Shown here one piece after another: positions 21,744-59,999 of a DNA stretch of 64,000 bases (position 1 is the first letter of the stretch; the number at the start of each line of letters is the position of its first letter). A program made the position numbers and the translations under genes. The notes below the pieces were generated by a model that ran no database searches, was not told the DNA's origin, and saw only the letters and a program-made list of their open reading frames with translations. Source of the DNA: Candidatus Pacearchaeota archaeon (GTDB lineage: Archaea > Nanobdellota > Nanobdellia > Pacearchaeales > GW2011-AR1); assembly GCA_026395815.1 (NCBI GenBank), contig JAPLXZ010000010.1, positions 70,659-134,658 on the forward strand, read 5' to 3'.

Positions 21744-23183
21744 TTAAGTTTTCATAAATTTCCTTAATGCAGGATTCATATCTGTTTGATGTTGCTGAAC
21801 AATGTTCTGATAGAACTGAAAGAAAATCATTACAACAAGCAAGATAGCTGTTCCAGAGGTTAATGCTCCCATTAAGTTTGTTACTGAAGCCAAAAATCCA
21901 ATAGCAATTCCCCCCATAACAGTTAAAGGCATGATATACCTGTCTAAAATGCTTTCTAAAACTCTTTCATCCTGCCTAAATCCTGAAATTTGCAATCCTG
22001 AAGAAGATATCTTATTGGCTTGAGCCTTTGAATCCATTCCTGAAGTCTTAACCCAAAATACTGCGAATAAAGTTGAAAGAACTACATAAAACAAAATGTG
22101 AGTTAATCCCTGAAGTAAATACTTTAGCAAAAATCCCCCCCTTATTATTAATTCTAGAAGATTAGTTGAACCCATCCAGAATGCTAAACCAGAAATTGGC
22201 TGTCCATCAATAAAATGTCCTAAAAATCCAAAATAGGAAGCAAACTTTGCAATTCCTGCGCAAGTTCCTCCAACTATAAAGCAGGGAGCAGCAGCATTCT
22301 CTAAGATTCCTCCAAAGACTTGAAAGCTAACAACCAATGCAGCAGTTAAGATTACAGGAATGTTTGAAGCATAAAAGAAAGATAAAGGCCATTTTACATT
22401 ATAACCTCTTATTCTTCCCATTGACAATGGAACTTCTACTTTCAATGATTGTGCCCATACAATAACCAAGAAGATTATTACTGTAGCAATGATTGCACCT
22501 GCAGCAGATATTAATTCTGTAGGATATTTGTTAATTACTGCTTGTATCAAAACAAAGATTTTCCCAGGACATGCTGTTTTCCCAAAATCTAACAGACAAT
22601 TTCTTCCCTCTTGATTTACAAACTGAATTGCGCTAGTTATCAAATGCCATGAAGCACCAGCTGCAATAAACAAGCTTATTCCAGAACCGAATCCCCACTT
22701 GCTTGTTACTTCGTCCATATAATAAATTGCTATTCCTCCAAGTATTAATTGAAAGATAAGAAGCGGAGCAAGACCAGGAGATGCCTGCAATCCTTGCATT
22801 AAAACATAAATAAGTGCCTCAAAAATTATAAAGAAGAGAGTCAAGATTTTTTGAATTCCCTGAAAAAACTTTCTACCTTCAACACTCGTTGTGTCTATAT
22901 TAAGTATTCCACTTCCAGTAAGCAACTGCAAAATAACTGAAGCCATTACTATTGGTCCAATACCCAAAGAGATTATGCTTCCAAAGTCAGTCCCAAGAAT
23001 TATTGCTAAATATTTGAATCTTTCAAGAGCATTATTTGAAAGTCCGAAAAGCGGGATGTTTGCGAGAACAAAAAAAGAAACCAAGATTATCAAAGTCCAT
23101 TTTAATTTTACACTAAAACTTACTTTTTTCTCATCAGGACTTTTGACTTCTGGTATAAATTTGAATATGCCTCTTAAATCCAT
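21744..23183 (-). CDS. secY: Preprotein translocase SecY
   Basis: Family-typical sequence. Start set at MDLRGIFKF because the 16 extra track codons read through the leader element. Confidence 0.9.
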   Translation of the reverse strand: MDLRGIFKFIPEVKSPDEKKVSFSVKLKWTLIILVSFFVLANIPLFGLSNNALERFKYLAIILGTDFGSIISLGIGPIVMASVILQLLTGSGILNIDTTSVEGRKFFQGIQKILTLFFIIFEALIYVLMQGLQASPGLAPLLIFQLILGGIAIYYMDEVTSKWGFGSGISLFIAAGASWHLITSAIQFVNQEGRNCLLDFGKTACPGKIFVLIQAVINKYPTELISAAGAIIATVIIFLVIVWAQSLKVEVPLSMGRIRGYNVKWPLSFFYASNIPVILTAALVVSFQVFGGILENAAAPCFIVGGTCAGIAKFASYFGFLGHFIDGQPISGLAFWMGSTNLLELIIRGGFLLKYLLQGLTHILFYVVLSTLFAVFWVKTSGMDSKAQANKISSSGLQISGFRQDERVLESILDRYIMPLTVMGGIAIGFLASVTNLMGALTSGTAILLVVMIFFQFYQNIVQQHQTDMNPALRKFMKT

Positions 23184-23222
23184 TATGCAAAATCTCCTGT
23201 TTTGTATTTTGGTTGAATTTCC
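23181..23222 (-). repeat. 3' half of the conserved leader element, directly before secY
   Basis: Sense strand: GGAAATTCAACCAAAATACAAAACAGGAGATTTTGCATAATG. Confidence 0.6.
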
Positions 23223-23274
23223 TGTGCACAAGTTCCTCGTCTTGTGCAGTGGCTGACTTCCTGTCTGCTACGTT
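23223..23274 (-). other. GC-rich (~54%) spacer with two predicted hairpins
   Basis: 8-bp stem TGCACAAG/CTTGTGCA (23225-23232 with 23241-23248), plus GCAGAC/GTCAGC with one mismatch. Confidence 0.35.
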
Positions 23275-23331
23275 CTACCATTGTGCAAATCTCCTAAATT
23301 TGTATTTATGGCAAATTTCTCGTTTGCTCAT
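23275..23331 (-). repeat. Full leader-element copy with no gene attached (mini-ORF MSKREICHKYKFRRFAQW)
   Basis: Sense strand: ATGAGCAAACGAGAAATTTGCCATAAATACAAATTTAGGAGATTTGCACAATGGTAG. It starts at a TAAAATG junction with the rpl15 stop. Confidence 0.6.
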
Positions 23332-23332
23332 T

Positions 23333-23773
23333 TTATTTCACTAAAATTTCTCCACCCGCCTCTTTTACTTTTTCCATTGCAGATTTTGAAGCTTCTTTTG
23401 CTTTTATAATCAATTTTTCTTTTATTTCTCCATCACCAAGGATTTTATAATCCTCTAAATTAACTTCCCATTTATCCTCTTTCTTCTTCCCGTAGGTTTT
23501 AAGATTTTGTTCTATTGTTCCAAGATTTATTCTTTTCCTTTTATCTCTCTCTGTTCTTTTGCTAGTGATTCCTTGTTTTCCAAAATATTTATTGCCAAAC
23601 AATTTTATGACAAGGCTTTTTTTCTGGTCTGCTCTTTTTCCTGTTCCAGACATTCCTTTCCCACCATAATGTCCTTTCTTCTTGTGTTTTTTTCTCTCTC
23701 CCCATCCATGCGTTCCTCTACCTCTTCCTTGCATTCTGCTTGATTTTCTTCTTTTGTGTGTTTTGATTGCCAT
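23333..23773 (-). CDS. rpl15: Ribosomal protein uL15
   Basis: GRGRGTHGWG...GGKGMSGTGKR motif; operon position. Confidence 0.85.
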   Translation of the reverse strand: MAIKTHKRRKSSRMQGRGRGTHGWGERKKHKKKGHYGGKGMSGTGKRADQKKSLVIKLFGNKYFGKQGITSKRTERDKRKRINLGTIEQNLKTYGKKKEDKWEVNLEDYKILGDGEIKEKLIIKAKEASKSAMEKVKEAGGEILVK

Positions 23774-23774
23774 T

Positions 23775-24080
23775 TTATTTCACTATTATCCTTTTTAATT
23801 TGTTTATATCTAACTGTCCTTGATGAGCTGATGCATAACATTCGTCATATCTTTCATCCCACAAGTCTAATCTAACAAGTTCACACCTTAGATGATAATA
23901 ATCATAATAGATATCACTATCAACATAATTAGATTTTCCCTCTTTAATTTTTTTAGCTATCCTATCTATAGCGATTATTTTGTCTTTCACATCTCGATTA
24001 ACTAAGGTTCTATAATAATCTGGTTTCCCTTTCATTACTTTTGTAACTTCTTCTGCAACAACTTGAGCTATGGTTTTCAT
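23775..24080 (-). CDS. Hypothetical 101-aa protein inserted between rpl30 and rpl15
   Basis: ORF tightly packed (1-nt gap to rpl15); no family recognised. Confidence 0.5.
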   Translation of the reverse strand: MKTIAQVVAEEVTKVMKGKPDYYRTLVNRDVKDKIIAIDRIAKKIKEGKSNYVDSDIYYDYYHLRCELVRLDLWDERYDECYASAHQGQLDINKLKRIIVK

Positions 24081-24166
24081 AACATCCTCTCTATTAACTC
24101 ATTTATTTTCTCTTCCGATTTTTTGTTTACAAAATATCGCAAACTGAAATTAATTTTTTTCATCAT
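24077..24166 (-). other. 29-codon mini-ORF (MMKKINFSLRYFVNKKSEEKINELIERML) bridging rpl30 and the 101-aa ORF
   Basis: ATGA overlaps at both ends. Its C-terminus repeats the rpl30 C-terminus (TEINKLIERML). Confidence 0.45.
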
Positions 24167-24510
24167 AGCATTCTCTCAATTAATTTATTAATTTCAGTTT
24201 TATTATTTCCTAAAACTCCCTTCCCAATTCCAAAAGGTTTTTTGCTTTCAATTCCCTTTCTTGGTGGATGTAATCTAAAAAAGGTTTTTGATTTCTTTCC
24301 ACGAGCTTGAACTAATTTTTCATATGTTTCTTCGCTAATATCACCATATGCAACAAAATTCCTAACTTTTTCAATCATCCCTAATTGTTCTTTGCCTGGT
24401 TTTTCTGAAACAATACACGAATATTTCTTTTTTAATCTCAATCTTTCAAATGTTTCTTTTATCTCTTTTCTTAGCCCAACATTTCCTTTTATCCTTATTA
24501 CTGCTATCAT
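24163..24510 (-). CDS. rpl30: Ribosomal protein uL30
   Basis: MIAVIRIKGNVG start; ATGA overlap with the rps5 stop. Confidence 0.8.
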   Translation of the reverse strand: MIAVIRIKGNVGLRKEIKETFERLRLKKKYSCIVSEKPGKEQLGMIEKVRNFVAYGDISEETYEKLVQARGKKSKTFFRLHPPRKGIESKKPFGIGKGVLGNNKTEINKLIERML

Positions 24511-25277
24511 CTTTCTTTCTCCATATTTGTTTTTTCTAATGCATTGATACATGCTTTTACTAAATTTGATGTTGTTCTTCTGCTTCCAAAACTTTTGCTA
24601 TAAACATCTTTTATTCCTGCAAGTTTTAATACTTTTTTTAATTCATTTGCTACTACAAGGCCTGTTCCTTGTGGTGCAGGTGTCAAGATTATTTCTACGC
24701 TTCCTGCCTTTCCAATTACCTTGAATGGTATGCTGTGTGGTTCTGAACAAGCACAATCAAAACTTGAACACCCTCTTGTTACTTTCATGATATTCAATTT
24801 TGCTTTTCTTATTGCTTTGTCTCTTGCTGGAAGAGTTTCTTTTGCTTCTCCTGCTCCAATACCAACATGTCCGTCTTCATCGCCAATAACAGCAAGAGTA
24901 GAGAATGTTGGCACGTTTCCTTCTTTTGTTTTTCTTTGGGTTTGTTTCCATGCTCTTCTTTTTCCTCCACCAAACTTCCCTTTTGATTGTCCTATAGAAA
25001 TTAAATCAGATTTTACATTCAATAAAAAATCAACAATCTGTTGTTCCAATATTTTTCTTTTGCTTGTTAAAATATCATCAATATTCTTGATGTTTTTTTC
25101 CTTAACTTCTCTTCCGAGTTTTGTTTTTGGGATCCATGAAGCGAGTTCCTGTTTTCTGCTTTCTTCTTCTCTTCTCGTTTTTTCATCGATTATTTTCAAT
25201 TCTTTATCTATTTCTTTCTCTAAAAGTTCTTCGCTTATTATTTCTGGTTTTTCTTCATTAATTTTTTTCTCGGTCAT
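24507..25277 (-). CDS. rps5: Ribosomal protein uS5
   Basis: S5 dsRBD and C-domain sequence; K/E-rich N-terminus. Confidence 0.9.
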   Translation of the reverse strand: MTEKKINEEKPEIISEELLEKEIDKELKIIDEKTRREEESRKQELASWIPKTKLGREVKEKNIKNIDDILTSKRKILEQQIVDFLLNVKSDLISIGQSKGKFGGGKRRAWKQTQRKTKEGNVPTFSTLAVIGDEDGHVGIGAGEAKETLPARDKAIRKAKLNIMKVTRGCSSFDCACSEPHSIPFKVIGKAGSVEIILTPAPQGTGLVVANELKKVLKLAGIKDVYSKSFGSRRTTSNLVKACINALEKTNMEKER

Positions 25278-25279
25278 TT

Positions 25280-25774
25280 TTAGTTTTTTTCTATCTTCGA
25301 TTTAATTTCATTGAATTTTTGTGAAAAATCTTTTTTCATGTGTTTTCCACTTATCCTATCTTTATCTGGGAAACATTCTTCATCACATTTTATTTTTATT
25401 CCAGATTCTATAATTCCATTCAAAAAAGCATAAGCTCTATTTTTTCTTATTGCTCTAACCATACCAAAATCAGCAATAGGGGTTTTTAATTTGTTTTTGA
25501 TGATTTCTTTTCCTATAAGCAATCCAGTTAAATATGCTGCTGGAATTGACTTCAAACTTCCACTCATTTCATTAGGCCAACCGTATTTGATTAAAGCTTT
25601 TGAAGTCAATCCTATCTCGACTTTGTCTTGCGCTTCTTTGCTTGTTACATATTGTGCGAGGATATACTTGTTTGTTTTTCTGAAAATTACTCTTGGACAC
25701 TTGTTTTTTAACAATTTTATTCTCTTCAAATAATCTGTTTTTCCTTCCTTCCTTCTTCGCTTTAAAGTTTTCAT
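25280..25774 (-). CDS. rpl18: Ribosomal protein uL18
   Basis: Sequence and operon position. Confidence 0.85.
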   Translation of the reverse strand: MKTLKRRRKEGKTDYLKRIKLLKNKCPRVIFRKTNKYILAQYVTSKEAQDKVEIGLTSKALIKYGWPNEMSGSLKSIPAAYLTGLLIGKEIIKNKLKTPIADFGMVRAIRKNRAYAFLNGIIESGIKIKCDEECFPDKDRISGKHMKKDFSQKFNEIKSKIEKN

Positions 25775-26172
25775 TATTTATTTCCTCCAAAATATTCTTT
25801 TATATGGTTTTTATCCCTGAAGAATTTATTTTTTATTTTTTTTCTTACATCTTCCAATTCTTTTTTTGTCAACTTTCCCCTTACTTCTGCAACGTACTTT
25901 CTTAATTTTCTTGTTAAGATCATATAGTCTCTCTTACGCGTTTTTACTTTCTTTTTAATATTTCCAGTGCTTCTTTTTTTCTTCTTTTTGATATTTGTCT
26001 TCCTGCCTTTAATGTTCTTTATTGTTATTGCCCCATCTTTTTGCAAATCTCTAATATCCTGTTTTGTAATTGCTTCTTTTATTTCATCTAATCTAGAATT
26101 TGAGAAGGCAATTCTCTCTAACCCAACTCCAAAAGTTCTTGCAGCTAATAATTTTTTCTTTTTTAAATTCAT
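25774..26172 (-). CDS. rpl19e: Ribosomal protein eL19
   Basis: Start set at MNLKKKKLLAAR, downstream of GGAGG. Confidence 0.85.
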   Translation of the reverse strand: MNLKKKKLLAARTFGVGLERIAFSNSRLDEIKEAITKQDIRDLQKDGAITIKNIKGRKTNIKKKKKRSTGNIKKKVKTRKRDYMILTRKLRKYVAEVRGKLTKKELEDVRKKIKNKFFRDKNHIKEYFGGNK

Positions 26173-26222
26173 TATGTAAAACCTCCCGTTTTGTATTTGT
26201 GGCAAATTTCTTGTTTGCTCAT
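26170..26222 (-). repeat. Leader-element copy (reference copy); mini-ORF MSKQEICHKYKTGGFT
   Basis: Sense strand: ATGAGCAAACAAGAAATTTGCCACAAATACAAAACGGGAGGTTTTACATAATG. ATGA overlap with the rpl32e stop; TAATG overlap with the rpl19e start. Confidence 0.65.
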
Positions 26223-26599
26223 TTTTTCTTCTCCTTATCTTTTACTTCTTTTCTTTCATTTTTCTTTAGGAATTTTTCTGTATTAATGTTTGAAACATGA
26301 ATTCCCATCTCTTTTGCTTTTTTTATCAATTCAATTTTTTTTCTTTTTCCGATTTTTCCAATTATTATACTTTCCTTTGCTTTAACTTTTTCAAGTTCCT
26401 TTAAATTGCTGATTAGCATTATTTTTTTCTTATCTTCCTGTTTATACCCTATTCTTACTGACGCAGGATATCCTTTTTGTTTTTCTCTCATTTTATTATG
26501 CCTTCCTTTTGGTTTTCTCCAAACTTGTTTTTTCTTTCTTCCTTTCCCAAGCCGTGAATGCTTATCCCAGTTTCTTCTTAAGAATTTAATTTTTCCCAT
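26219..26599 (-). CDS. rpl32e: Ribosomal protein eL32
   Basis: Start set at MGKIKFLRRNW; KGRHNKMR motif. Confidence 0.85.
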   Translation of the reverse strand: MGKIKFLRRNWDKHSRLGKGRKKKQVWRKPKGRHNKMREKQKGYPASVRIGYKQEDKKKIMLISNLKELEKVKAKESIIIGKIGKRKKIELIKKAKEMGIHVSNINTEKFLKKNERKEVKDKEKKK

Positions 26600-26641
26600 T
26601 ATGCAAACCTCCCGGGTTGTATCCACAATTTCTGAGGACAT
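26597..26641 (-). repeat. Divergent leader-element copy before rpl32e
   Basis: Sense strand: ATGTCCTCAGAAATTGTGGATACAACCCGGGAGGTTTGCATAATG. Here the upstream ATG is in frame with rpl32e. Confidence 0.5.
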
Positions 26642-26663
26642 ATGAAAAATTTACTTTCCATAT

Positions 26664-27206
26664 TTACATTTCCTCCCCGCATTTGTTGGTTATGAATATG
26701 CCGTCTTGAAAAACTCTTCTGTCTCTTTTAGAAATTCTTGTAACATTCTCTAAATTAGCTGCAACCATCCCAGCTAATTCTTTGTTTATTGACCTTACTG
26801 TTATTATTTCTTTTTCAACTTCAACTTCAATTCCTTGAGGAAATTTTATTCTCCTTGGAACTTTTTCACCCAAAAAATTCTTTATTATTACTTCATTATT
26901 CTTAAGTTCGGCAGTTATAGGAAAATGGCTAAAACAAACTTTCAACTTATATTCGAATTTTTTTTGAACACCTTTAATCATATTTCTGATATGTGCAGCA
27001 ATTGTATTCATTATTCTTTTTTCTTTTTTAGTTGCTTTTTTGTTTCCTATTATTATTTGATTGTTTTTCTTTTCTGCGCTTAATTTTGAGAAATCAAATT
27101 TTCTTTCATTTATTCCATGTGTTCCACTGACTTTGACAAGATTTTCAATTAATTCAACTTCTACCCCATTTGGAATTTCAATTGTTTGGAATAATTCTTT
27201 TTTCAT
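26664..27206 (-). CDS. rpl6: Ribosomal protein uL6
   Basis: Sequence and operon position. Confidence 0.85.
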   Translation of the reverse strand: MKKELFQTIEIPNGVEVELIENLVKVSGTHGINERKFDFSKLSAEKKNNQIIIGNKKATKKEKRIMNTIAAHIRNMIKGVQKKFEYKLKVCFSHFPITAELKNNEVIIKNFLGEKVPRRIKFPQGIEVEVEKEIITVRSINKELAGMVAANLENVTRISKRDRRVFQDGIFITNKCGEEM

Positions 27207-27209
27207 AAT

Positions 27210-27590
27210 CTAGTAAAAATATGCTACCAAGCATCCTCCTGTTCCTTCTGTTAATGCCTCTTCATGAGTCATTAATCCCTTATTTGTTGAGATTATCATT
27301 GTTCCTATGTTTCTTGCTGGAAGATATCTTCTCTGATATTTTTCAATTTGCTCTTTTTTGACGGTGAATCTTGGTTTGATTGCCCTGCATTCAGACAACT
27401 TTCCAATGCCTACTTCTACGCTTTTCTTTTTGCTGTTGATTTTGTATTTCTTTATTGCTTCTTGTTGTTTCATTATTTTCAAAACCTCGATTAATAAATT
27501 TGAAATCTTTTTTATCTCTACATTTTCTTTTCCAGATTTTTTCGCATTCTTTATCATGTTTAGTGCATCAGCAACTGTATCTTGTGACAT
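27210..27590 (-). CDS. rps8: Ribosomal protein uS8
   Basis: Start set at MSQDTVADALN; TAAAATG junction with the rps14 stop. Confidence 0.85.
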   Translation of the reverse strand: MSQDTVADALNMIKNAKKSGKENVEIKKISNLLIEVLKIMKQQEAIKKYKINSKKKSVEVGIGKLSECRAIKPRFTVKKEQIEKYQRRYLPARNIGTMIISTNKGLMTHEEALTEGTGGCLVAYFY

Positions 27591-27591
27591 T

Positions 27592-27822
27592 TTATGAGTA
27601 TTTTTGAAAACCGATTTCTGTGGCAATTTCCCTGAAACAGTGTCGGCATAAATTTAATCCGTATGACTTTATATGTGCTCCAAATCTTCCGCATCGTTCA
27701 CATTTCTTTGCAGCAATCCCAATTTTTCTTTCCTTTGGCTTGTTATGTTTCAAAAATTTCTCCATAACTGCAGGTTTGTTCTTCAATTGTTTCAAAATTT
27801 TTTTCCAATCACTTGCTGTCAT
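27592..27822 (-). CDS. rps14: Ribosomal protein uS14 (zinc type)
   Basis: CERCGR...CRHCFRE motif. Confidence 0.8.
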   Translation of the reverse strand: MTASDWKKILKQLKNKPAVMEKFLKHNKPKERKIGIAAKKCERCGRFGAHIKSYGLNLCRHCFREIATEIGFQKYS

Positions 27823-27887
27823 TTAACAAACCTCCGTTTGGCGAATGAGTTAAAAATTTTCAGATTCAAAGGTAAGTTTTTTCTCAT
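27819..27887 (-). other. 22-codon mini-ORF (MRKNLPLNLKIFNSFAKRRFVK) between rpl5 and rps14
   Basis: Its own GGAG lies 6 nt upstream of its ATG. Its stop overlaps the rps14 start (ATGA). It contains a CAAAC-GGAG-GTTTG hairpin. Confidence 0.45.
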
Positions 27888-27897
27888 GTTTTTCTCC

Positions 27898-28401
27898 TTA
27901 TATAAATTTTGTTTGGAAGTTTTCTTCCATAAATTTAATTATTTCCTCTTTACTAATCCCTTGTCTTTCTGGAATTTTTCCTGTTTTTATTTTTCTTAAT
28001 TTTACCCTTCTTCCTGCTCTTTTGAATACAACAGTAACATCTAATCCCTTAATTCCAATATCTCTCTGATAGTCCATCCCAGGAATTTCAATGTATTCTT
28101 TAAGTCCAAATGAAAAATTATTCACACTTATTTGGTTCTTTTTTAGTTTATTGTCTATCGCGACTAACATTCTCTTTAATACTGCTGGAACATCTTTTCT
28201 TATTGTAGAAACAGCTCCAACTTCTAATTTTGGACGAACTCCAAATGCAGGGATTCTTTTGTGAGATTTTATCTTTGCTGGCTTTTTATTAGTCAATAAT
28301 TGAAGAAGTTTTACTCCTTTTTCTAATTCTTCTGCAGTTCCACCTACACTTAGCACAATCTTCTCCATTCTTATCTGTCTGTTCGGATTTTCGTTTTTCA
28401 T
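27898..28401 (-). CDS. rpl5: Ribosomal protein uL5
   Basis: Sequence and operon position. Confidence 0.9.
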   Translation of the reverse strand: MKNENPNRQIRMEKIVLSVGGTAEELEKGVKLLQLLTNKKPAKIKSHKRIPAFGVRPKLEVGAVSTIRKDVPAVLKRMLVAIDNKLKKNQISVNNFSFGLKEYIEIPGMDYQRDIGIKGLDVTVVFKRAGRRVKLRKIKTGKIPERQGISKEEIIKFMEENFQTKFI

Positions 28402-28403
28402 AT

Positions 28404-29054
28404 TTATTCAACCACCATTAATTGATTTATTAATATGTTAATTTCCCTATCTTCAATTTTTATTTCTGCTGTTTTATCCTTTAAATTTAATTTATTGATT
28501 ACTCCTTTTTTTCCAGAATGTTTTCCAGCAAAAACAATCACTTCAGCTTTTTCCTTTAATGGAAGACACTTTTCTATTTTTCCTTCCTTAAGATTAATCA
28601 AAACAGAATCATTTATATTACATTTAACTTCAGATAAAGAGTTTCTTCCATCACTTAAATTCAGTTGGATTTTCTTCCCCCTTAAACTTTTTTTATTGAT
28701 TATTTTTGATATTTTCTTTTCTGTCTCTGTTTTGTTTATCTCTTTAAGATAAAACTTTCCTTTTTCTGATAGTTCTAACCTATAACATTTATTTAGGGGG
28801 ATAACATTTATCGTATCGAATAATAAAACATTGTTCTTTTCATCTTTTATCTTTCTCTCATTTACTAAAACCTGTCTCAAATGAATTATCTTTTTTGCCT
28901 CTTTCCTTGTTTGTGCTAATTTGAGCAGATCTCTTAAAATAATTAATACTGGAATTCCCTTATTAATATTAAAATTAGGCTTGACTACATAAGTTGAGCC
29001 CTTTCTTTTTATTGGCCAATTTCTCGGAACTTCCTGTCTCATTAAATGACTCAT
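28404..29054 (-). CDS. rps4e: Ribosomal protein eS4
   Basis: Sequence and operon position. Confidence 0.85.
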   Translation of the reverse strand: MSHLMRQEVPRNWPIKRKGSTYVVKPNFNINKGIPVLIILRDLLKLAQTRKEAKKIIHLRQVLVNERKIKDEKNNVLLFDTINVIPLNKCYRLELSEKGKFYLKEINKTETEKKISKIINKKSLRGKKIQLNLSDGRNSLSEVKCNINDSVLINLKEGKIEKCLPLKEKAEVIVFAGKHSGKKGVINKLNLKDKTAEIKIEDREINILINQLMVVE

Positions 29055-29464
29055 TTTTTATCCTCCTTGTCTTCTTTTTTCTTTTTTTCTTTGCTAATTT
29101 CTTTTATTCTTTTTTTGTCTTCTGTATTCAAATCAATAATCTGTAAATTTGAAGGATGCATTTTCACATTTGCTTTTGAACCATCTTGCTTTTTAACTTG
29201 TACTCCCTCAATTATCACTTTTGAATTTTTTACATCAACTTCAATGATTTTTCCTTGTTTTTTCTTAAATTTTCCTTTCATTATTTTGACATTATCTCCT
29301 TTCCTTATCGGAACATTTCTTTTTCCATATTTTTTTCTAAGTTCCTTTGATAAATTAACGCTTAATAATTTCCTTTTTATATGTAATGGAGCATTCGCTG
29401 AATATTTTCTTTGTTTTCTTGGTTGTTTGCTTGCTTTCCAATGTGTTGAAAATTCTTTTTTCAT
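29051..29464 (-). CDS. rpl24: Ribosomal protein uL24
   Basis: KOW motif RKGDNVKIMKGKFKKKQGKI. Start set at MKKEFSTHWK, at a TAAAATG junction with rpl14. Confidence 0.85.
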   Translation of the reverse strand: MKKEFSTHWKASKQPRKQRKYSANAPLHIKRKLLSVNLSKELRKKYGKRNVPIRKGDNVKIMKGKFKKKQGKIIEVDVKNSKVIIEGVQVKKQDGSKANVKMHPSNLQIIDLNTEDKKRIKEISKEKKKKEDKEDKK

Positions 29465-29465
29465 T

Positions 29466-29867
29466 TTAATATACACTTGCAGCGATTTTAGCAACTGATG
29501 GCCATCGCTCCATAACCTCCCTTGCAACAACACCCTTAATCTGAGTTCCCTTAGGATTTCCTTTATCATCTTTTAAAAGGGCAACAGCATTATCTTCAAA
29601 TGCAACCATCTCTCCATTTAATCTTTTATAAGACTTTTTTTGTCTAATTACAATTGCATCAAAAACCTTGCCTTTCATTTCAGGGAGACCTTTTCTTACA
29701 CTTACTTTTACCCAGTCAGCAACTTTTGCATATCCTTGTCTTCCTTTCTTGGTTTTTCCATGCTTTATTGAAACGAGTTTTGTTACTTTTGCTCCGCTGT
29801 TATCTGCAGCAATCATAATTGCTCCGATATTCAATCCTCTTGTTACTCTAGCGCTTACTGGTTTCAT
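29466..29867 (-). CDS. rpl14: Ribosomal protein uL14
   Basis: Sequence and operon position. Confidence 0.9.
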   Translation of the reverse strand: MKPVSARVTRGLNIGAIMIAADNSGAKVTKLVSIKHGKTKKGRQGYAKVADWVKVSVRKGLPEMKGKVFDAIVIRQKKSYKRLNGEMVAFEDNAVALLKDDKGNPKGTQIKGVVAREVMERWPSVAKIAASVY

Positions 29868-29923
29868 TTAAAATTGTCTCCGTGTTTATTTTGAATGAAT
29901 GAAAATCTTTGATTTACTTTCAT
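29864..29923 (-). other. 19-codon mini-ORF (MKVNQRFSFIQNKHGDNFK) between rps17 and rpl14
   Basis: TAAAATG junction with the rps17 stop; ATGA overlap with the rpl14 start. Confidence 0.45.
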
Positions 29924-29924
29924 T

Positions 29925-30275
29925 TTATCTTTCTCCCGCCGATTTTATTTTTTTAATTACAACGAAATGAATTATCTTGCTCAATGGACGGCATTCCTGA
30001 ATCATTATTAAATCTCCTATTTGAATGTCATTTTCTATGCATATTGGAAGTCTTGCATGAATTTTTGTTCTTGATTTGGAATATCTTTCATATTTTTTGT
30101 TGTAAATCATCCTCTCAAATTCGATTACAATTCTTTTTGGAAATTTCTTAATGACTCTTCCTTCAAAGATTCTTCCTCTTGTTTTTAACCCACCATGAAT
30201 ATGACATCTCTTATCATTGCAAATAGTAGTGACTATTTCTTTTTCTTCTTTCGATTTTTTTTCTGTTTTTTTCAT
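29925..30275 (-). CDS. rps17: Ribosomal protein uS17
   Basis: CPIHGGLKTRGRIFEGRV-type core. Start placed at MKKTEKK; the longer track start at 30344 would overlap SUI1 by 44 nt. Confidence 0.75.
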   Translation of the reverse strand: MKKTEKKSKEEKEIVTTICNDKRCHIHGGLKTRGRIFEGRVIKKFPKRIVIEFERMIYNKKYERYSKSRTKIHARLPICIENDIQIGDLIMIQECRPLSKIIHFVVIKKIKSAGER

Positions 30276-30300
30276 TTTTTTTCTGTTTTTGTGTATGTCT

Positions 30301-30597
30301 TTAGTCAATCGCACCCGGTTCAAATCCAAGCTTGACAAGGACATCTTTTATCTTTTTCCTGTGATCTCCTTGGAGTTCTATTTCATTGTTTTTACTCGTT
30401 CCTCCACAAGCAAGCTCGTTTTTAAGAGCTGTTGCGATCTTCTTTATGTCAATTCCATCTCCAAGTCCGGTTACCAATGTGACCAGTTTCCCGTATCTTT
30501 TCTTTTCAGTGGTCACTTTTATACTCTGTGAACCTTTTGCGATTTTTTCACATACACATGCTTGCTCAGGCAAGCCACATTTTGGACATATTTCCAT
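30301..30597 (-). CDS. Translation initiation factor SUI1/aIF1
   Basis: N-terminal CPKC...CVC followed by a SUI1 fold (GKLVTLVTGL...ELQGDHRKKI). Confidence 0.8.
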   Translation of the reverse strand: MEICPKCGLPEQACVCEKIAKGSQSIKVTTEKKRYGKLVTLVTGLGDGIDIKKIATALKNELACGGTSKNNEIELQGDHRKKIKDVLVKLGFEPGAID

Positions 30598-30599
30598 TG

Positions 30600-30818
30600 T
30601 TACTTGTTCTTCTCAACTTCTTTAGAAGATTTATTTTCTTTAAAGTTATTGAGTGTGAGTATTCTAGCCATAGTCTTTTTTATTTCTTTTATCTTTGAAC
30701 TTCCTGATTTTGAAGCACTTACTTTTGCTTTGACCAATTCAAACTTTAATTCTTCAAATTTTTTATCTCTTTCACTTTTACTCATCCTTCTAATGTCTTT
30801 TGTTTTTAATATTGCCAT
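30600..30818 (-). CDS. rpl29: Ribosomal protein uL29
   Basis: Sequence and operon position. Confidence 0.8.
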   Translation of the reverse strand: MAILKTKDIRRMSKSERDKKFEELKFELVKAKVSASKSGSSKIKEIKKTMARILTLNNFKENKSSKEVEKNK

Positions 30819-30819
30819 T

Positions 30820-31509
30820 TTAATCCTTCTTCACCTTTTTTCTTTTCTTTGGTTTAATTTCTTCTTCTTTAATTTTTTCAAGTTCAACCACATTCATTTT
30901 TAATCTCGCTATGACCTCTTTGTCAATTATTACCTTATCTTTTAATATTGCATAAGGAGAAAGTATGCTCACTTTAACTCCAACTGTTCCTGGTTTTGTT
31001 TGTGCTACAGATTTTGCTCTGTCTACTACTTTTGCACTATCCCCGACTTTTTTTAAGTAACCCTGGGAAAATCTCCATGTCTTTGCTCTAGCACTTGGAA
31101 GCTTTCCACCTAACACAATTTCTGCTCCCAATGCACCGGCGTGCATGATTTTTTGAAGACTTTTATAAGCAATTACTTTAAATCTAAGTGGTCCCATTCT
31201 TTCTAGTCCTAAAGCAATTTCATCAGCGACGATTTGTGCATCAAACTCTGGTTGTTTTATTTCGTCTATATCTATTCTTGGATTTTCAAATTTGAATTTG
31301 CTTTTCAAAATATTTGTTAATTCTTCAATTTTCTCTCCTTTCTTTCCTATGATTAGTCCTGGCTTATTAGTCGATATAATTACTTTCTCCCCTATTGGTG
31401 TGTATTCTATTCTAACTCTGCTTATTTTTCCTTTTCCCAATATGCTTTTGATATATTCCTTAATCGCGAATTCATCTTTCTTTAATTTTACAATATTTCT
31501 TTCTTCCAT
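30820..31509 (-). CDS. rps3: Ribosomal protein uS3
   Basis: KH domain (GLIIGKKGEKI); operon position. Confidence 0.9.
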   Translation of the reverse strand: MEERNIVKLKKDEFAIKEYIKSILGKGKISRVRIEYTPIGEKVIISTNKPGLIIGKKGEKIEELTNILKSKFKFENPRIDIDEIKQPEFDAQIVADEIALGLERMGPLRFKVIAYKSLQKIMHAGALGAEIVLGGKLPSARAKTWRFSQGYLKKVGDSAKVVDRAKSVAQTKPGTVGVKVSILSPYAILKDKVIIDKEVIARLKMNVVELEKIKEEEIKPKKRKKVKKD

Positions 31510-31514
31510 CTTAT

Positions 31515-31730
31515 TTATTTAGTGTCCTCCCAATACTTACATTCATTTAACGCATTCTCCGTCCCAGATTCAATTCCTTTATAAGGTATGTTCAAGACTT
31601 CACATATAACATGTAATGCATTATTAATCCCTGAAAGGTAAGCAGAATGCATTATCATTAACTGATCTTCTTTTACAAGTTTTTCAAGACCTGTTCTTAT
31701 TCTATTAAATTGTTCATTATTAATTTCCAT
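31515..31730 (-). CDS. Hypothetical 71-aa protein inserted between rpl22 and rps3
   Basis: Tightly packed ORF (1-nt and 5-nt gaps); no family recognised. Confidence 0.45.
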   Translation of the reverse strand: MEINNEQFNRIRTGLEKLVKEDQLMIMHSAYLSGINNALHVICEVLNIPYKGIESGTENALNECKYWEDTK

Positions 31731-31731
31731 T

Positions 31732-32430: not shown

Positions 32431-32438
32431 TTTGTATT

Positions 32439-32840
32439 TTATTTTTTAGCCTGAGACCTTGTTCCTTTTGTTGAACCAATCCCAGCACTTCCATGTTTTA
32501 TCTTAGATCTCGTTGGTACAAACTCTCCTAGTCTATGTCCCAACATTTCTTTTAATATTTCTACAGGAACAAATGCATGTCCGCTATGAATTTGTATTTT
32601 CATTCCAATCATCTGAGGAACTATGACTAATGCTCTCTTGTGTGTTTTTATTGGCTTATTTTTTTCTGCTTTTCCTTTAGCTCTGCTTACAAAGTTCTCC
32701 ACGTTCTGGAATTGTCTGAGAACAGCTCTTCTCTGTCGTGATTTTAAATATTTTGCGAATTCTCTAACATCTAACGTTTTCAATTCATCGATTGTCTTTC
32801 CCCGGAAAGTAAATTGTTTTTTTGTTGTTTCTATTGCCAT
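32439..32840 (-). CDS. rps19: Ribosomal protein uS19
   Basis: Sequence and operon position. Confidence 0.9.
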   Translation of the reverse strand: MAIETTKKQFTFRGKTIDELKTLDVREFAKYLKSRQRRAVLRQFQNVENFVSRAKGKAEKNKPIKTHKRALVIVPQMIGMKIQIHSGHAFVPVEILKEMLGHRLGEFVPTRSKIKHGSAGIGSTKGTRSQAKK

Positions 32841-32887
32841 TACGAAAATTCTCCTGAATTTTTGTTTATGTAAAATTTATTTTTCAT
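32838..32887 (-). repeat. Leader-element copy; mini-ORF MKNKFYINKNSGEFS
   Basis: Sense strand: ATGAAAAATAAATTTTACATAAACAAAAATTCAGGAGAATTTTCGTAATG. TAAAATG junction after rpl2; TAATG overlap into rps19. Confidence 0.55.
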
Positions 32888-32888
32888 T

Positions 32889-33590
32889 TTATCTTTTCTT
32901 CCTTCCTGTTCTTCTTGGCCTTATTAATCCAACTCTTGCTCCAGGAGGAGCATTTCTCTTCGCTATTTTACTTTTGATTCTCTTTCCTCTACCACTTCCG
33001 AATGGATGGTCTATAACATTCATCTTGACAGCAGAGGTTCTTGGCCATAATCTATTTCTTGATTTTTTCATATGAAATTTTTTTCCTGCTTTGATTACAG
33101 GTTTATCCAATCTTCCTGCTCCTGCAATAACCCCAATAATCGCTCTGCAATTGGAATTAAACTTCCTTTCTTTTTTTGATGGAAGTAATAGGAATATATT
33201 CTCACCCACAATTTTGTTTACAACAGCATAGTTTCCACCAGTTCTTATGAAAACTCCCCCATCTCCTGGATTTGATTCAATATCATAAACTTGTGTTTTT
33301 AATGGAATGTCTTTTAATTTGAGTATATTCCCTGTTTTTGCTTCTTTTTCTTCAAAACTTATTTTTTGTCCTTCAATAATCCCCTTGCATGCAGGAATGT
33401 AAAAAATTCCCCTTTCATATTTTATTTTTGCTAAAGGTGCAGAATGCCCAGCAGAATTGAATAGTTTAATGACTGTTCCTTCTCCTTTAAGTTCTCTTGG
33501 ATATTTCAGTCTGAATCTGTATGCATTTCTTCTAACTCGGTAACTGAAACTTCCATGCCCTCTTGCCTGTTGAATTATTCGCTTTCCCAT
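32889..33590 (-). CDS. rpl2: Ribosomal protein uL2
   Basis: Sequence and operon position. Confidence 0.9.
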   Translation of the reverse strand: MGKRIIQQARGHGSFSYRVRRNAYRFRLKYPRELKGEGTVIKLFNSAGHSAPLAKIKYERGIFYIPACKGIIEGQKISFEEKEAKTGNILKLKDIPLKTQVYDIESNPGDGGVFIRTGGNYAVVNKIVGENIFLLLPSKKERKFNSNCRAIIGVIAGAGRLDKPVIKAGKKFHMKKSRNRLWPRTSAVKMNVIDHPFGSGRGKRIKSKIAKRNAPPGARVGLIRPRRTGRKKR

Positions 33591-33640
33591 TATGCAAAAT
33601 TTCCTAATTTTGTATCTTTGAAAAATTTCTTGTTTTTCAT
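33588..33640 (-). repeat. Leader-element copy; mini-ORF MKNKKFFKDTKLGNFA
   Basis: Sense strand: ATGAAAAACAAGAAATTTTTCAAAGATACAAAATTAGGAAATTTTGCATAATG. It starts 7 nt after the rpl23 stop and has a TAATG overlap into rpl2. Confidence 0.6.
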
Positions 33641-33647
33641 TTTTTAT

Positions 33648-33887
33648 TTAGATTAATCCTAATTTCGTTGCTACATCAATAGCAGGAAATTCTTTCTTTA
33701 ATTTAACATAAGCATATTTCTTATTTCCCTTAACCATTGTCCTAATGCCATCAGCTTTCACCTTGAATAAGTCTTCAATTTCTTTTTTTATTTCCTCTTT
33801 AGTCTTGTTTTTTTCAGTTTCAAATGTCAGAACATTTTGACTTTCTATTGCCATGACTGCTTTTTCTGTTACAATCGGTTTTATCAT
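33648..33887 (-). CDS. rpl23: Ribosomal protein uL23
   Basis: Sequence and operon position. Confidence 0.85.
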   Translation of the reverse strand: MIKPIVTEKAVMAIESQNVLTFETEKNKTKEEIKKEIEDLFKVKADGIRTMVKGNKKYAYVKLKKEFPAIDVATKLGLI

Positions 33888-35667: not shown

Positions 35668-35742
35668 TTCTTAATAGTGCGGATAACATTTTATCTTACC
35701 CTGGATAAAATATTGAGAAAACTGGGCTTTTTAAGGGTTTCT

Positions 35743-39511: not shown

Positions 39512-39633
39512 GCCTCCGTCGCATAATGGTATTGCACCGGTCTTGAGTTAAAAAACGGCCTTGTTTGTCAAGGTTTTGTCAAACAAGAGAACCGGGCCTT
39601 TACGGCTTCCAGGTTCGATTCCTGGCGGGGGCG
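39512..39633 (+). tRNA. tRNA-Ser(UGA) with a ~42-nt intron (about 39548-39589) after position 37
   Basis: Acceptor GCCTCCG/CGGGGGC with G73. T-arm CCAGG-TTCGATT-CCTGG. Anticodon stem CCGGT/ACCGG with loop CT-TGA-G. 13-nt variable arm GCC-tttac-GGC. Confidence 0.8.
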
Positions 39634-56553: not shown

Positions 56554-56554
56554 A

Positions 56555-56657
56555 ATGAGCAAACAAGAAATTTGCCACAAATAAAAAACGGGAGGTTTTG
56601 CATAATGAGCAAACAAGAAATTTGCCACAAATACAAAATAGGAGATTTTGTAAAATG
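56555..56657 (+). repeat. Two tandem leader-element copies
   Basis: The 50-nt unit ATGAGCAAACAAGAAATTTGCCACAAATA... starts at 56555 and again at 56605. Mini-ORFs are MSKQEICHK and MSKQEICHKYKIGDFVK. Confidence 0.7.
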
Positions 56658-56858
56658 ACAGAAGTTAAATATAAAGATTTTTGCAAAGAAAGTGGATGTA
56701 GATTATATGGACTTTTAACAAAAGTAAATTCATTTGAAAATCCTTCCCCCCTAGTAATAGTTCAAAAAGAAGTTATTGAAAGAAGATGTAAAGAAAATTG
56801 CGAGCATACAGCACATGAACTCTATGAATGGTTAAAATCAAGAAGAACTATTGATTAA
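56655..56858 (+). CDS. 67-aa Cys/His-rich protein (MTEVKYKDFCKESGCRLYG...CKENCEHTAHE...)
   Basis: The start overlaps the mini-ORF stop (ATGA). The longer track N-terminus reads through the leader element. Confidence 0.5.
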   Translation: MTEVKYKDFCKESGCRLYGLLTKVNSFENPSPLVIVQKEVIERRCKENCEHTAHELYEWLKSRRTID

Positions 56859-57844: not shown

Positions 57845-57885
57845 GAAAACAACAGCAGAAAAAAGAATTTAAACCTTTCTTGTAA

Positions 57886-59491: not shown

Positions 59492-59878
59492 TTACACTTT
59501 TCTTTTGATTATTTTTTCTCCTTCAACATCCCAATATTCAACATTTGAATTTACTTCAATTTCTTGCTTAACTTCTTCAGGACAATTAACTTCCAATGTT
59601 TCAAAACTCTCCAAATCCATAATGCTAATCTTTTCTCCTATTGAAAGAACCTGCCCCTTTCTTTTGTTTACTATTGGGACTTCTATTCTTTCATGCCCCG
59701 GGACAACAAAAACTTTTTTTTGTCCAGAGATTATTCCAGCAGCTTCAACTCTTGCTTTGCTGTGTCCGTGCTTTCCTGTTTTGCTTATATCAATTTTTTT
59801 TACAGTGCAGGATTCTCCTTCGAAAATTATGTTAGTACCCACCTTCATTTCAGTAGCATTAATTATCTTTAAGACCAT
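59492..59878 (-). CDS. Translation initiation factor 5A
   Basis: SKTGKHGHSKA hypusine loop. Start set at MVLKIINATEM. Confidence 0.85.
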   Translation of the reverse strand: MVLKIINATEMKVGTNIIFEGESCTVKKIDISKTGKHGHSKARVEAAGIISGQKKVFVVPGHERIEVPIVNKRKGQVLSIGEKISIMDLESFETLEVNCPEEVKQEIEVNSNVEYWDVEGEKIIKRKV

Positions 59879-59999
59879 TATGCAAAACTCCTGTTTTGTA
59901 TTTGTGCTGAAAACTTCCTGTTTTCTGTCATTATGCAAAATCTCCTAAATTTTGTATCCGCAACAAAGTGAAGACATTGAAAAATTTCCTGTTTTTCAT
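59876..59999 (-). repeat. Two tandem leader-element copies before aIF5A
   Basis: Mini-ORFs MKNRKFFNVFTLLRIQNLGDFA (59931-59999) and MTENRKFSAQIQNRSFA (59878-59931), each ending in TAATG. Confidence 0.65.

Follow-up and report, generated by a model that had tools for sequence, protein, structure and literature searches.

Start-codon-locked mini-ORFs, dispersed in Pacearchaeota and related archaea, as candidate relays for translating ribosomes

The 64,000-nt stretch of a Pacearchaeota genome analysed here (the window) carries a repeat whose unit is a mini-ORF of about 50 bases, 15–32 codons, ending on the start codon of the next gene. Copies of this unit are alike in anatomy, conserve an open reading frame, form two hairpins that covary, lie locked to start codons, and are present or absent among close relatives. 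The preliminary description had called the repeat a leader element; no untranslated leader, each unit is an ATG-to-stop mini-ORF with its stop overlapping the next ATG. We consider it rather probable that the unit is a dispersed translated spacer, or mini-cistron, that relays ribosomes from one gene to the next by termination and reinitiation.

That the repeat is real, strand-specific and placed at gene starts, as first described, was confirmed by consensus matches and by a profile. A 53-nt consensus matches 26170-26222 (minus strand) and 56555-56607 (plus strand) with one mismatch each, where chance would supply 0 matches. An nhmmer profile made from eight copies regains all eight and adds two, one proximal to secY (23181-23225, E=3e-8) and one before rpl32e (26597-26656, E=5e-4), for a total of 10 copies; beyond these, nothing in the whole window scores better than E=0.06. 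Rfam covariance models match no copy at gathering thresholds, and a permissive search (E<=5) of 23100-33700 and 56400-60100 yields no match either. Membership in any Rfam family—ribosomal-protein leader, riboswitch or other cis-regulatory RNA—is rejected on these grounds, and the earlier opinion that the repeat belongs to no described family stands as regards Rfam. The earlier coordinates of the copies all hold, with one end adjusted: the unit before rpl32e reaches 26661 rather than 26641. The units and related features are listed here, with translations given up to the stop codon.

33590..33640, minus strand: family-1 unit before rpl2; mini-ORF MKNKKFFKDTKLGNFA
32840..32887, minus strand: family-1 unit before rps19; mini-ORF MKNKFYINKNSGEFS
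26172..26222, minus strand: family-1 unit before rpl19e; mini-ORF MSKQEICHKYKTGGFT
26599..26661, minus strand: family-1 unit, long variant, before rpl32e; mini-ORF MESKFFICPQKLWIQPGRFA
23275..23331, minus strand: distal of two tandem units before secY; mini-ORF MSKREICHKYKFRRFAQW
23183..23281, minus strand: proximal unit before secY; mini-ORF MVERSRQEVSHCTRRGTCAQEIQPKYKTGDFA; extra 48-nt 5' module
59931..59999, minus strand: distal of two tandem units before aIF5A; mini-ORF MKNRKFFNVFTLLRIQNLGDFA
59878..59931, minus strand: proximal unit before aIF5A; mini-ORF MTENRKFSAQIQNRSFA; TAATG overlap at each end
56555..56607, plus strand: first of two tandem units before a 67-aa Cys-rich ORF; frame broken by TAC>TAA (MSKQEICHK, then stop)
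56605..56658, plus strand: second tandem unit before the 67-aa Cys-rich ORF; mini-ORF MSKQEICHKYKIGDFVK
27819..27887, minus strand: family-2 mini-cistron before rps14; MRKNLPLNLKIFNSFAKRRFVK; GGAGG motif, ATGA overlap
29864..29923, minus strand: family-2 mini-cistron before rpl14; MKVNQRFSFIQNKHGDNFK; ATGA overlap
24077..24166, minus strand: unrelated 29-codon ORF, rpl30 to a 101-aa ORF; MMKKINFSLRYFVNKKSEEKINELIERML; ATGA overlaps at both ends

All of the window units start with ATG. The rpl2 unit (MKNKKFFKDTKLGNFA) begins 7 nt past the rpl23 stop; at its other end, TAA overlaps the rpl2 ATG (33588-33590). The rps19 unit begins 1 nt past the rpl2 stop (TAA-A-ATG), the rpl32e unit just past the rpl6 stop, and both end as TAATG on the starts of the genes they precede. 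The ATGA of the rpl19e unit itself provides the TGA stop of rpl32e, while its TAA overlaps the rpl19e ATG. The copy at 23275-23331, previously called an orphan, opens a tandem pair ahead of secY, where L100/L045 (our designations, here and below) have an orthologous copy. It begins 1 nt past the rpl15 stop; its TAATG is mutated to CAATGGTAG, and its stop therefore falls just beyond the next ATG. The proximal unit ends as TAATG on the secY start (23181-23183). At aIF5A, a TTTATAAA box starts 31-32 nt upstream of the mini-ORF ATG of the distal unit, which is leaderless-type geometry, and at the 67-aa Cys-rich ORF the TGA of the second unit overlaps the ATG, an overlap of the ATGA type. The copies before rps14 and rpl14, described before as degenerate, are indeed related, but as members of a second, related family (family 2); the 5' stem of the rpl14 unit, ATGAAA/TTTCAT, takes in the start codon. 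The 24077..24166 ORF, related to neither family, occupies the entire 82-nt gap between rpl30 and the 101-aa ORF. With this ORF counted, all of the long spacers of this operon are probably translated.

What is conserved in the repeat is its nucleotide sequence and its open frame, not its peptide. A family-wide set of 119 copies at 99 loci was assembled from MAGs of Pacearchaeota, Woesearchaeota and Nanoarchaeota; the copies were partly gathered with a fixed 3' pattern, which makes the outer 3' stem and TTTGCATAATG look more conserved than they are. An intact, ATG-initiated ORF with a stop that overlaps the next ATG is present in 100 of the 119. The overlap is TAATG in 115 copies and ATGA in one; in family 2 it is ATGA. 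Across 14 codons the mini-ORF frame is open in 101 of 110 unique copies, and the two other frames reach 65 and 75. The ATG-to-ATG distance is 2 mod 3 in 45 of 47 full-length profile hits, which fall into nine length classes between 44 and 74 nt. The invariant ATACAAAA occurs in all three codon phases (41/26/22). By length mod 3, open frame and three-phase core, then, the reading frame is kept irrespective of the peptide, as in a bicistronic design, and the mini-ORFs are probably translated. In 19 of the 119 copies the frame is broken, as in the first Cys-rich-ORF unit of the window and in the rpl2 copy of strain L182, which has ATT for its mini-ORF start; either some genes tolerate loss of the relay, therefore, or these copies are decaying.

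The position of the mini-ORF ATG was classified for 98 copies. In 53 it is placed on the stop codon of a long preceding ORF (17 ATGA overlaps, 19 TAA-A-ATG), in 20 a TATA box starts at about -29 of it, with an upstream SD in one of the 20, and 11 lie behind another copy. TATA boxes with the same geometry are common to ordinary genes of the window. Inside the mini-ORF, 9-10 nt upstream of the main ATG and in or at the loop of the 3' hairpin, where it was first noticed, is GGAG (or GGAGG). This is the putative SD for the gene that follows, carried within the 3' end of the mini-ORF; as in archaea generally, it would pair with the 3' end of the 16S rRNA. Nine genes of the window have a strong GGAG at 13-14 nt spacing, and six of these bear a mini-cistron. 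The repeat is not simply the generic context of an SD, a suspicion raised at the outset: about seven of the 82 genes in the window, and 14 of 82 related ribosomal-protein loci, carry the unit.

Compensatory change in the hairpins, proposed from inspection by eye, has survived quantification. The 5' stems GCAAA/TTTGC, GAAAAA/TTTTTC and GAAAAC/GTTTTC are present, as are the 3' stems AAAAC/GTTTT, CAAAATT/AATTTTG, AAAATTC/GAATTTT and CAAAAC/GTTTTG; in the rpl2 unit the two are TGAAAAA/TTTTTCA and CAAAATT/AATTTTG. RNAalifold and pair counts were applied to 18 distinct copies of one subfamily, with 500 shuffles for comparison. In these 18, 97.2% of cells pair, versus 86.0 +/- 1.4 in shuffles (0/500), both-sided changes occur at five of ten pairs (0/500 again), and slid registers all score below the true one. 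When registers are fixed by sequence anchors, 38 of 45 positions of the 5' stem pair (permutation maximum 35), and the innermost 3' pair is T:A in 50 copies and C:G in 43, versus C:A in 11 and T:G in one. Thermodynamically, the hairpins are weak: family-1 units of 50-56 nt fold with an MFE of -4.5 to -8.6 kcal/mol, and the stability of the hairpins at 37 C is marginal. Thermodynamic stability was dropped as evidence of structure, being uninformative at folding z-scores of merely +0.3 to -2.5 across all 12 units. A leader-peptide attenuator of the trpL or ermCL type was rejected as well: the peptide is not conserved, the two small hairpins are independent, and no alternative pairing is predicted.

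In the explanation we prefer, the ATG of the mini-ORF would take the place of the gene's own start, either on or 1 nt past the upstream stop or where a leaderless promoter starts transcription. Ribosomes beginning there would translate 15–30 codons across two weak hairpins, encounter the GGAG Shine-Dalgarno motif displayed by the 3' hairpin, terminate at the stop that overlaps the ATG of the gene (TAATG or ATGA), and reinitiate on that ATG. Reinitiation we infer to be the mechanism, in a genome that would otherwise depend on leaderless and coupled starts; expression of the gene might thereby rise, fall or simply be kept as it was. The repeat would spread as copies to further start codons, multiply by tandem duplication and drop out again as an exact unit, because only insertions that preserve the relay are tolerated there, or perhaps even favoured. 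A bolder form of the idea, possible but tentative, is that we are dealing with a new genetic element, a self-propagating, start-codon-locked 'translated spacer', the tandem copy number of which would be a heritable dial on housekeeping translation in DPANN archaea. Such an element might enter gene starts, invisibly to expression or with some tuning of it, because it brings along an ATG at the position of the old start, a frame that stays open, a hairpin with the SD, and an overlap of stop and start.

The unit is not a fixed feature of the genes that follow it. Most relatives have empty junctions, and one junction differs even between near-identical strains. At the rpl23|rpl2 junction, the majority of 78 related species lack it, and their rpl2 ATG follows straight on the rpl23 stop; among five species that carry it, the copies are 84-98% identical, and identity of the rpl2 coding sequences is 65-77%. 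That a single ancestral insertion filled this junction is hard to reconcile with its carriers, which are scattered on the rpl2 tree, and seems the less likely as far as this single-protein NJ tree can show. Filled and empty sites of close relatives differ by exactly 47-50 nt, and two strains that are 99% identical differ by the presence or absence of one exact 50-nt unit. The rpl19e junction is empty in L100 and L103, the difference being exactly this 50-nt, ATGA-flanked insertion; the rps19 junction is empty in L146 and L100; and family-2 relatives are found at rps14 in L102, L103 and L147 while the site is empty in L100 and L101. Ribosomal-protein genes are frequent among downstream genes. 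The restriction to translation and secretion genes suggested by the window breaks down outside it, with gyrB, MCM, FEN1/XPG, a proteasome subunit, a CDC48-type AAA ATPase, an M16 peptidase and membrane proteins all among the genes served.

Some of these facts are what one would expect of a selfish, DNA-level mobile element, a miniature REP/BIME-like or IS200/IS605-derived PATE-like sequence with hairpin ends or a product of microhomology-mediated template switching, for which ORF, SD and overlap would be the price of tolerance and of no benefit to the host. Occurrence is patchy, with as many as seven copies in 20 kb at one of the 14 occupied species loci, tandem arrays run to at least six units, and carriers at the rpl2 junction are scattered. 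Near-identical copies stand before unrelated genes of one genome (the first Cys-rich-ORF unit and the rpl19e unit, 30 kb apart, are 51/53 identical), several copies within a genome have genome-specific variants in common, and the 99%-identical strains differ by an exact unit. The sequence is better conserved than the essential genes that flank it and yet dispensable in most lineages; it has two hairpins; and its ends are alike in inverted orientation (ATGAAAAA...TTTTGCAT), although only loosely so as inverted repeats go. But all of about 117 copies are in sense orientation and end on an ATG, with 0 in antisense or away from starts, and the sense strand has G:T wobble pairs. Target duplication is inconsistent beyond ATG/ATGA; rpl22 alone has 9-11 nt, which match that gene's own head. 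Viral contigs are without copies. Pfam scans of some 70 ORFs of the window disclose no transposase of any hairpin-using type, no Y1_Tnp/RAYT domain and no related IS; the hairpins are there, and covary, with no Y1 (HUH) transposase among the window's ORFs. The one tyrosine integrase sits in an unrelated, tRNA-linked island. We judge it unlikely, all told, that the unit is primarily such an element.

Nor are we persuaded that the unit is a cis-regulatory RNA, bound by a protein or small molecule, that coordinates housekeeping translation in the manner of an archaeal ribosomal-protein leader or a 5'TOP-like regulon signal, the ORF being secondary. Two covarying hairpins, together with conserved single-stranded ATACAAAA and GCATAATG, would suit it, as would nucleotide conservation above that of neighbouring genes and enrichment ahead of genes for ribosomal proteins, RNA polymerase and aminoacyl-tRNA synthetases. 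The stems, however, are AU-rich, 4-8 bp long and barely stable, and no conserved internal loop or junction offers a binding pocket. A purely structural role leaves the conservation of frame and of length mod 3 unexplained, Rfam has no match, the downstream genes are heterogeneous, and the element is missing from equivalent genes of most relatives and of the sister strain; we regard this reading as quite improbable. That the mini-ORFs encode functional small peptides, as a family of micro-proteins or as regulatory nascent peptides, strikes us as scarcely credible. The ORFs are maintained, and many start M-K-N-K-F-F or M-T-E-N-K-F and end G-D-F-A, but the core occurs in three codon phases and so yields DTKSGDFA, IQNRSFA or KYKTGGFA, subfamilies related in DNA are frame-shifted with respect to one another (MSKQEIC vs MKNKKFF), and the likeness at the C-terminus is set by the SD and spacer sequence.

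Taken as a translated spacer, the unit combines known ideas in a new way; individual genes coupled through a tiny upstream ORF are known, and synthetic biology has exploited the principle. Short ORFs at integron attI sites (ORF-11 and similar) boost the translation of cassette genes that have no initiation region of their own, and they too bring ribosomes to a downstream start from a tiny upstream ORF; unlike the unit here, the attI ORF is a single fixed site per integron, not dispersed and without conserved hairpins. REP/BIME sequences, the PATEs of IS200/IS605, and MITEs are likewise tens of nucleotides long, hairpin-bearing, multi-copy, often tandem, and present or absent by strain. These are untranslated intergenic DNA, found in either orientation and dependent on RAYT/TnpA or a parent IS, whereas our unit is always sense, start-codon-locked and in frame, with no such enzyme among the ORFs of the window. 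Rickettsia palindromic elements are selfish-looking palindromic repeats that survive in translated sequence, as here, by keeping frame, but they insert inside protein-coding genes and join the protein; the unit is a separate mini-cistron ahead of the gene.

Engineers use bicistronic designs to secure dependable translation, and the unit looks like a natural version that is spread by copying. Close in design are synthetic leaderless bicistronic constructs, which need both translation of the fore-cistron and an SD, and in which, similarly, the fore-cistron begins at the transcript's first AUG, has the SD in its 3' end, and overlaps the next cistron by TAATG (PMC10367133). The unit described here differs in being natural, archaeal, dispersed and multi-copy, with tandem arrays and strain polymorphism; it occurs within operons, too, coupled to an upstream stop, and it has two conserved, covarying hairpins. 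In the leaderless-dominated archaeon H. volcanii, de novo initiation is not driven by SD motifs; these come into use where a stop overlaps a start, and coupling at such overlaps is strict (Huber et al. 2019, PMC6728339). Overlapping archaeal gene pairs of this kind resemble our units in their 1-nt TAATG or 4-nt ATGA overlaps behind an intragenic SD and in their leaderless first genes (PMC6728339), except that a normal protein gene stands upstream in those pairs, rather than a 15-30-codon repeat, without conserved peptide, inserted between genes that abut in relatives. In mycobacteria, unannotated leaderless short ORFs head polycistronic transcripts (bioRxiv 10.1101/834739; PMC4633059). These too lie ahead of an annotated gene and have the 5' AUG of a leaderless transcript for their start, but they are gene-specific attenuators (Cys-rich ones, for example), not a family of repeats in which an SD hairpin is embedded and the stop overlaps the next start.

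A full-text search of the literature returned no dispersed, multi-copy cassette family of this kind that is gained and lost as exact start-codon units. To our knowledge, no conserved, dispersed family of coupling cassettes has been described before. If the relay is real, organisms that depend on leaderless starts or reinitiation could add sequence between coupled genes with expression unbroken, and the units would be natural, evolution-tested bicistronic parts for archaeal engineering. They would also represent a class of unannotated mini-ORFs to be flagged in the annotation of DPANN, the tiny-genome archaea. The repeats break short-read assemblies: Logan contigs for aIF5A, rpl18 and rpl15 stop inside them, L180 and L181 within the proximal repeat of aIF5A. 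At strain level, look-ups were without result for rpl19e, the Cys-rich ORF, rpl5 and the N-terminal product of ftsZ.

Two other origins were also set aside. A viral source was discarded on 0 matches in viral contigs, and simple tandem duplication of a native junction on the mismatch, at rpl22, between the 3' half of the unit and the sequence upstream of the junction. As a separate observation, the first 9-11 nt of the MTE-type unit are the same as the head of rpl22, and the head of family 2 is the same as that of rpl14.

Read on its sense strand, every unit of the repeat in the window is a miniature open reading frame: it starts with ATG, continues as an open frame, and closes with a stop codon that shares bases with the ATG of whatever follows, be it a gene or a further unit. 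Stop and start overlap as TAATG in the main family of units (family 1), and as ATGA in family 2 and in cys-b, the second of two tandem units before a 67-aa Cys-rich ORF. This architecture, which spans 15–32 codons in the window, was overlooked in the preliminary description, whose coordinates and sequences are as described at every site. The units precede the following genes:

rpl2: mini-ORF MKNKKFFKDTKLGNFA
rps19: mini-ORF MKNKFYINKNSGEFS
rpl19e: mini-ORF MSKQEICHKYKTGGFT
rpl32e: mini-ORF MESKFFICPQKLWIQPGRFA
secY: two tandem units
aIF5A: two tandem units
67-aa Cys-rich ORF: two units, with a premature TAA in the first

The repeat is real. A 53-nt consensus matches, with one mismatch each, the copies before two unrelated genes that lie 30 kb from each other on opposite strands; by chance, 0 such matches are expected. 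A nhmmer profile built from eight copies also recovers the secY-proximal and rpl32e copies and, beyond the named copies, finds nothing in the window better than E=0.06. The element had been recognized as no described family, and Rfam indeed returns nothing, either with gathering thresholds or with E ≤ 5.

The window is ~31% G+C, and an archaeal ribosomal-protein cluster runs along its minus strand from ~35.7 kb, where three ORFs precede rpl23, as far as secY at 21.7 kb (Pfam: L23, L2, S19, L22, S17, L14, S4e, S14, L6, L32e, L19e, L18, S5, L30, L15-type and SecY). The rps14 and rpl14 copies, previously called degenerate, do share the architecture, but they form a separate second sequence family (ATGAAAGCAAATCAAAGATTTTCAyTCATTC...GGAGG...ATGA), found again in other species at rps14, rpl14, rpl6 and rpl5. 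Inside the coupled ribosomal-protein run just one other long spacer remains, the 82 nt that separate rpl30 from a 101-aa ORF; an unrelated 29-codon ORF, overlapping its neighbour as ATGA on either side, takes up all of it. Because the units and this ORF fill the spacers, all those longer than ~40 nt in the coupled run are probably translated end to end. Further upstream, a 75-nt gap between 314-aa and 234-aa ORFs (34723–36447) lacks mini-cistron architecture and resembles a promoter region.

Scanning one genome from each species for the 3' half of the unit (ATACAAAA-N1-5-GGA-N2-4-TTTGCATAATG) found 99 loci, almost all in Pacearchaeota/Woesearchaeota/Nanoarchaeota MAGs, the DPANN groups that also supply the nearest public relatives of the window (L2 identity up to 83%); nhmmer found 109 copies in these loci. 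With the window included, the ORF is intact in 100 of 119 copies, from its own ATG to a stop on the following ATG. Over the last 14 codons ahead of the overlap, 101 of 110 unique copies keep the mini-ORF frame open; for the other two frames the counts are 65 and 75. Of 47 full-length profile hits, taken irrespective of whether the ORF is intact, 45 have an ATG-to-ATG distance of 2 mod 3, and nine length classes occur: 44, 47, 50, 53, 56, 65, 68, 71 and 74 nt. The invariant ATACAAAA is used in all three codon phases (41, 26 and 22 copies), giving ...DTKSGDFA, ...IQNRSFA and ...KYKTGGFA. Together with the open-frame counts, this indicates that nucleotides and an open frame are conserved, not a peptide.

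Where do the mini-ORFs begin? For 53 of 98 copies, on the stop codon of a long ORF upstream; 17 of these are ATGA overlaps, in which the element gives the upstream gene its TGA, as at rpl32e|rpl19e, and 19 are TAA-A-ATG junctions. Eleven copies directly follow another copy. A TATA-like box starts 26–38 nt upstream, mostly at about –29, in 20 copies, only one of which also has a Shine–Dalgarno (SD)-like motif ahead of the mini-ORF. In the window, ordinary genes likewise carry TTTATAAA at –29 without SD, and given established archaeal promoter spacing this arrangement is the signature of leaderless transcripts. By these contexts—upstream stop or TATA-box geometry—the mini-ORF ATG sits exactly where a gene normally starts. 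A strong GGAG at 13–14 nt is the spacing of nine genes, six of which bear mini-cistrons.

The two hairpins of the unit are weak, with minimum free energies of –4.5 to –8.6 kcal/mol in 50–56-nt family-1 units, and z-scores of +0.3 to –2.5 when all 12 units are folded. Their stems do change in a compensatory way, as had been proposed. In the 5' stem of the MTE subfamily, where the register is fixed independently of pairing by sequence anchors (ATGACW...AGCAC), 38 of 45 positions at depths 3–5 pair, against 27.7 on average and 35 at most in 10,000 permutations, and AT, CG, GC and TA pairs are all present. In the 3' hairpin, 50 copies have T:A and 43 have C:G as the pair adjoining the fixed arms (CAAAA/TTTTG), versus 11 with C:A and one with T:G. 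For 18 distinct sequences RNAalifold predicts exactly these two helices. Pair counting on them finds 97.2% of cells paired (shuffles: 86.0 ± 1.4), changes on both sides in five pairs, and a covariation score of 0.264 (shuffles: 0.072), each value reached in 0 of 500 shuffles; every slid register is worse. The copies behind all of these figures share descent, and their outer 3' arm was preset by the search pattern. The 5' loop (CAGGAAA or CAAGAAA) resembles a decayed SD, and some genomes have tandem runs of single 27-nt hairpin units, so the two-hairpin unit may be a duplicated SD hairpin.

The units come and go. An L2 orthologue is present in 78 species, and in the majority of them rpl23 ends right against the rpl2 ATG (...GGATTAATGTAAA|ATGGGAAAA...); only the window and five other species, scattered over the L2 tree, have a family-1 unit there, and a few have different mini-ORFs. 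Loci L116, L123, L126, L159 and L164, from other species, hold unrelated short ORFs or strong hairpins at this junction (e.g. GTTTCTTTTTT/AAAAAAAGAAAC), with TAATG again in L164. This order may use translated spacers more widely than the two families show. The rpl23|rpl2 copy is 84–98% identical between species, the rpl2 coding sequences there 65–77%. Only 14 of 82 ribosomal-protein loci have any family-1 copy; GW2011_AR19 has seven within 20 kb. The rpl19e and rps19 junctions, filled in the window, are empty in L100, L103 and L146, which are among its closest relatives; filled and empty versions differ by exactly 50 or 47 nt, with ATGA or AATG on the flanks. Before rpl22, an ENA contig that matches the window at 99% identity across 3.6 kb has an exact 50-nt unit (mini-ORF MTELKFSTNKNSGKFS*, TAATG), where the window and two Logan contigs have just the 8-nt native spacer; the insertion is flanked by a 9-nt repeat, ATGACAGAA, that is also the head of rpl22. 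The first 9–11 nt of MTE-type units (ATGACAGAAAA) equal the first codons of rpl22 (L012/L146, L103, L182), and the first 8–10 nt of family 2 (ATGAAAGCAA) those of rpl14 (L131, L144, L147). Mini-ORF heads may derive from gene heads, or units may insert via this microhomology. In the 99%-identical strain contig L182, the rpl2 mini-ORF (347–405; window 33591–33647) begins with ATT, not ATG, and its SD is AGGAG, against AGGAA in the window; sister strains may differ in how the relay set out below decays or is compensated. In L042, a head-to-tail array of 50-nt units (3677–4033), each MSKHEICHKYKTGGFA*, stands before a leucyl-tRNA synthetase gene; it has at least six units, a lower bound since a run of N breaks it. 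Several short-read contigs stop within the repeat.

Most likely, the element is a ribosome relay. Ribosomes would reach the mini-ORF ATG as they do a gene, at a leaderless 5' end or by reinitiation after an upstream stop, read through the unit, melting its hairpins, terminate at the overlapping stop, and reinitiate at the gene's ATG with the aid of the SD 9–10 nt upstream. That the mini-ORFs are translated we infer from their frames. The relay fits the experimental picture in Haloferax volcanii, a leaderless-dominated archaeon in which SD motifs do not support de novo initiation but often accompany stop/start overlaps, sites of strict coupling (PMC6728339). It also matches, part for part, a synthetic 'leaderless bicistronic design' that requires both fore-cistron translation and an SD (PMC10367133). 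If internal starts in these organisms need reinitiation, a sequence that enters a junction of coupled genes has to be read in frame all the way from the previous start to the new one; this would account for the frame constraint whether the element benefits its host or is merely tolerated.

A selfish hairpin element acting at the DNA level would account for the patchiness, the near-identity within a genome and the strain polymorphism, and a new type of mobile element is a substantial minority reading. No mobilizing enzyme was found within the window, however, target duplication is not consistent, and antisense or non-start copies number zero. A regulatory RNA that binds a protein or ligand is weakened by the tiny, unstable stems, by the frame constraint, and by the element's dispensability in sister lineages; a functional peptide is contradicted by the three reading phases of the conserved core. 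Upstream ORFs, SDs and stop/start overlaps are known as separate parts. What appears to be new is the package: conserved, dispersed, tandem-prone, start-codon-locked and probably translated mini-cistrons in DPANN archaea, a family found neither in Rfam nor in full-text literature searches.

The genes behind the element include many ribosomal proteins, RNA-polymerase subunits and tRNA synthetases. The initial impression that only translation and secretion genes carry it is incorrect, since gyrB, MCM, FEN1/XPG, a proteasome subunit, a CDC48-type AAA ATPase, an M16 peptidase and membrane proteins are also among them; they are probably better summed up as mostly highly expressed housekeeping genes.

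Elsewhere in the window, 39695–~53800, downstream of a tRNA, looks like an integrated island:

39512–39633 (+): tRNA, 122 nt, presumably with an intron of ~50 nt given this length (Rfam, 42 bits against a 29-bit threshold; ARAGORN reports no tRNA across the whole window)
39695–40867: tyrosine integrase, directly after the tRNA
44029–45033 (–): C5 cytosine methyltransferase
48641–49012: Vsr mismatch endonuclease
49035–50084 (+): C5 cytosine methyltransferase
50084–51679: GHKL-type ATPase with Ymh domain
51899–53827: helicase

Several further island ORFs have no Pfam match, and the island contains no copies of the repeat. Beyond it, ftsZ (60750–61856, +) is broken by a single in-frame TAA at 61413–61415 (…NAVKGIT*LVTTTGLVNLDFADIK…), between the GTPase and C-terminal domains; no other contig of the collection has the same 221-aa product, and the TAA may reflect an assembly error or a nonsense allele, or be a site of read-through. 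Within the ribosomal-protein cluster, two ORFs without Pfam match, of 101 aa (23775–24080, –, between rpl30 and rpl15) and 71 aa (31515–31730, –, between rpl22 and rps3), show tight coupling to the genes on either side; both are likewise called in strain-level contigs L182, L183 and L188.
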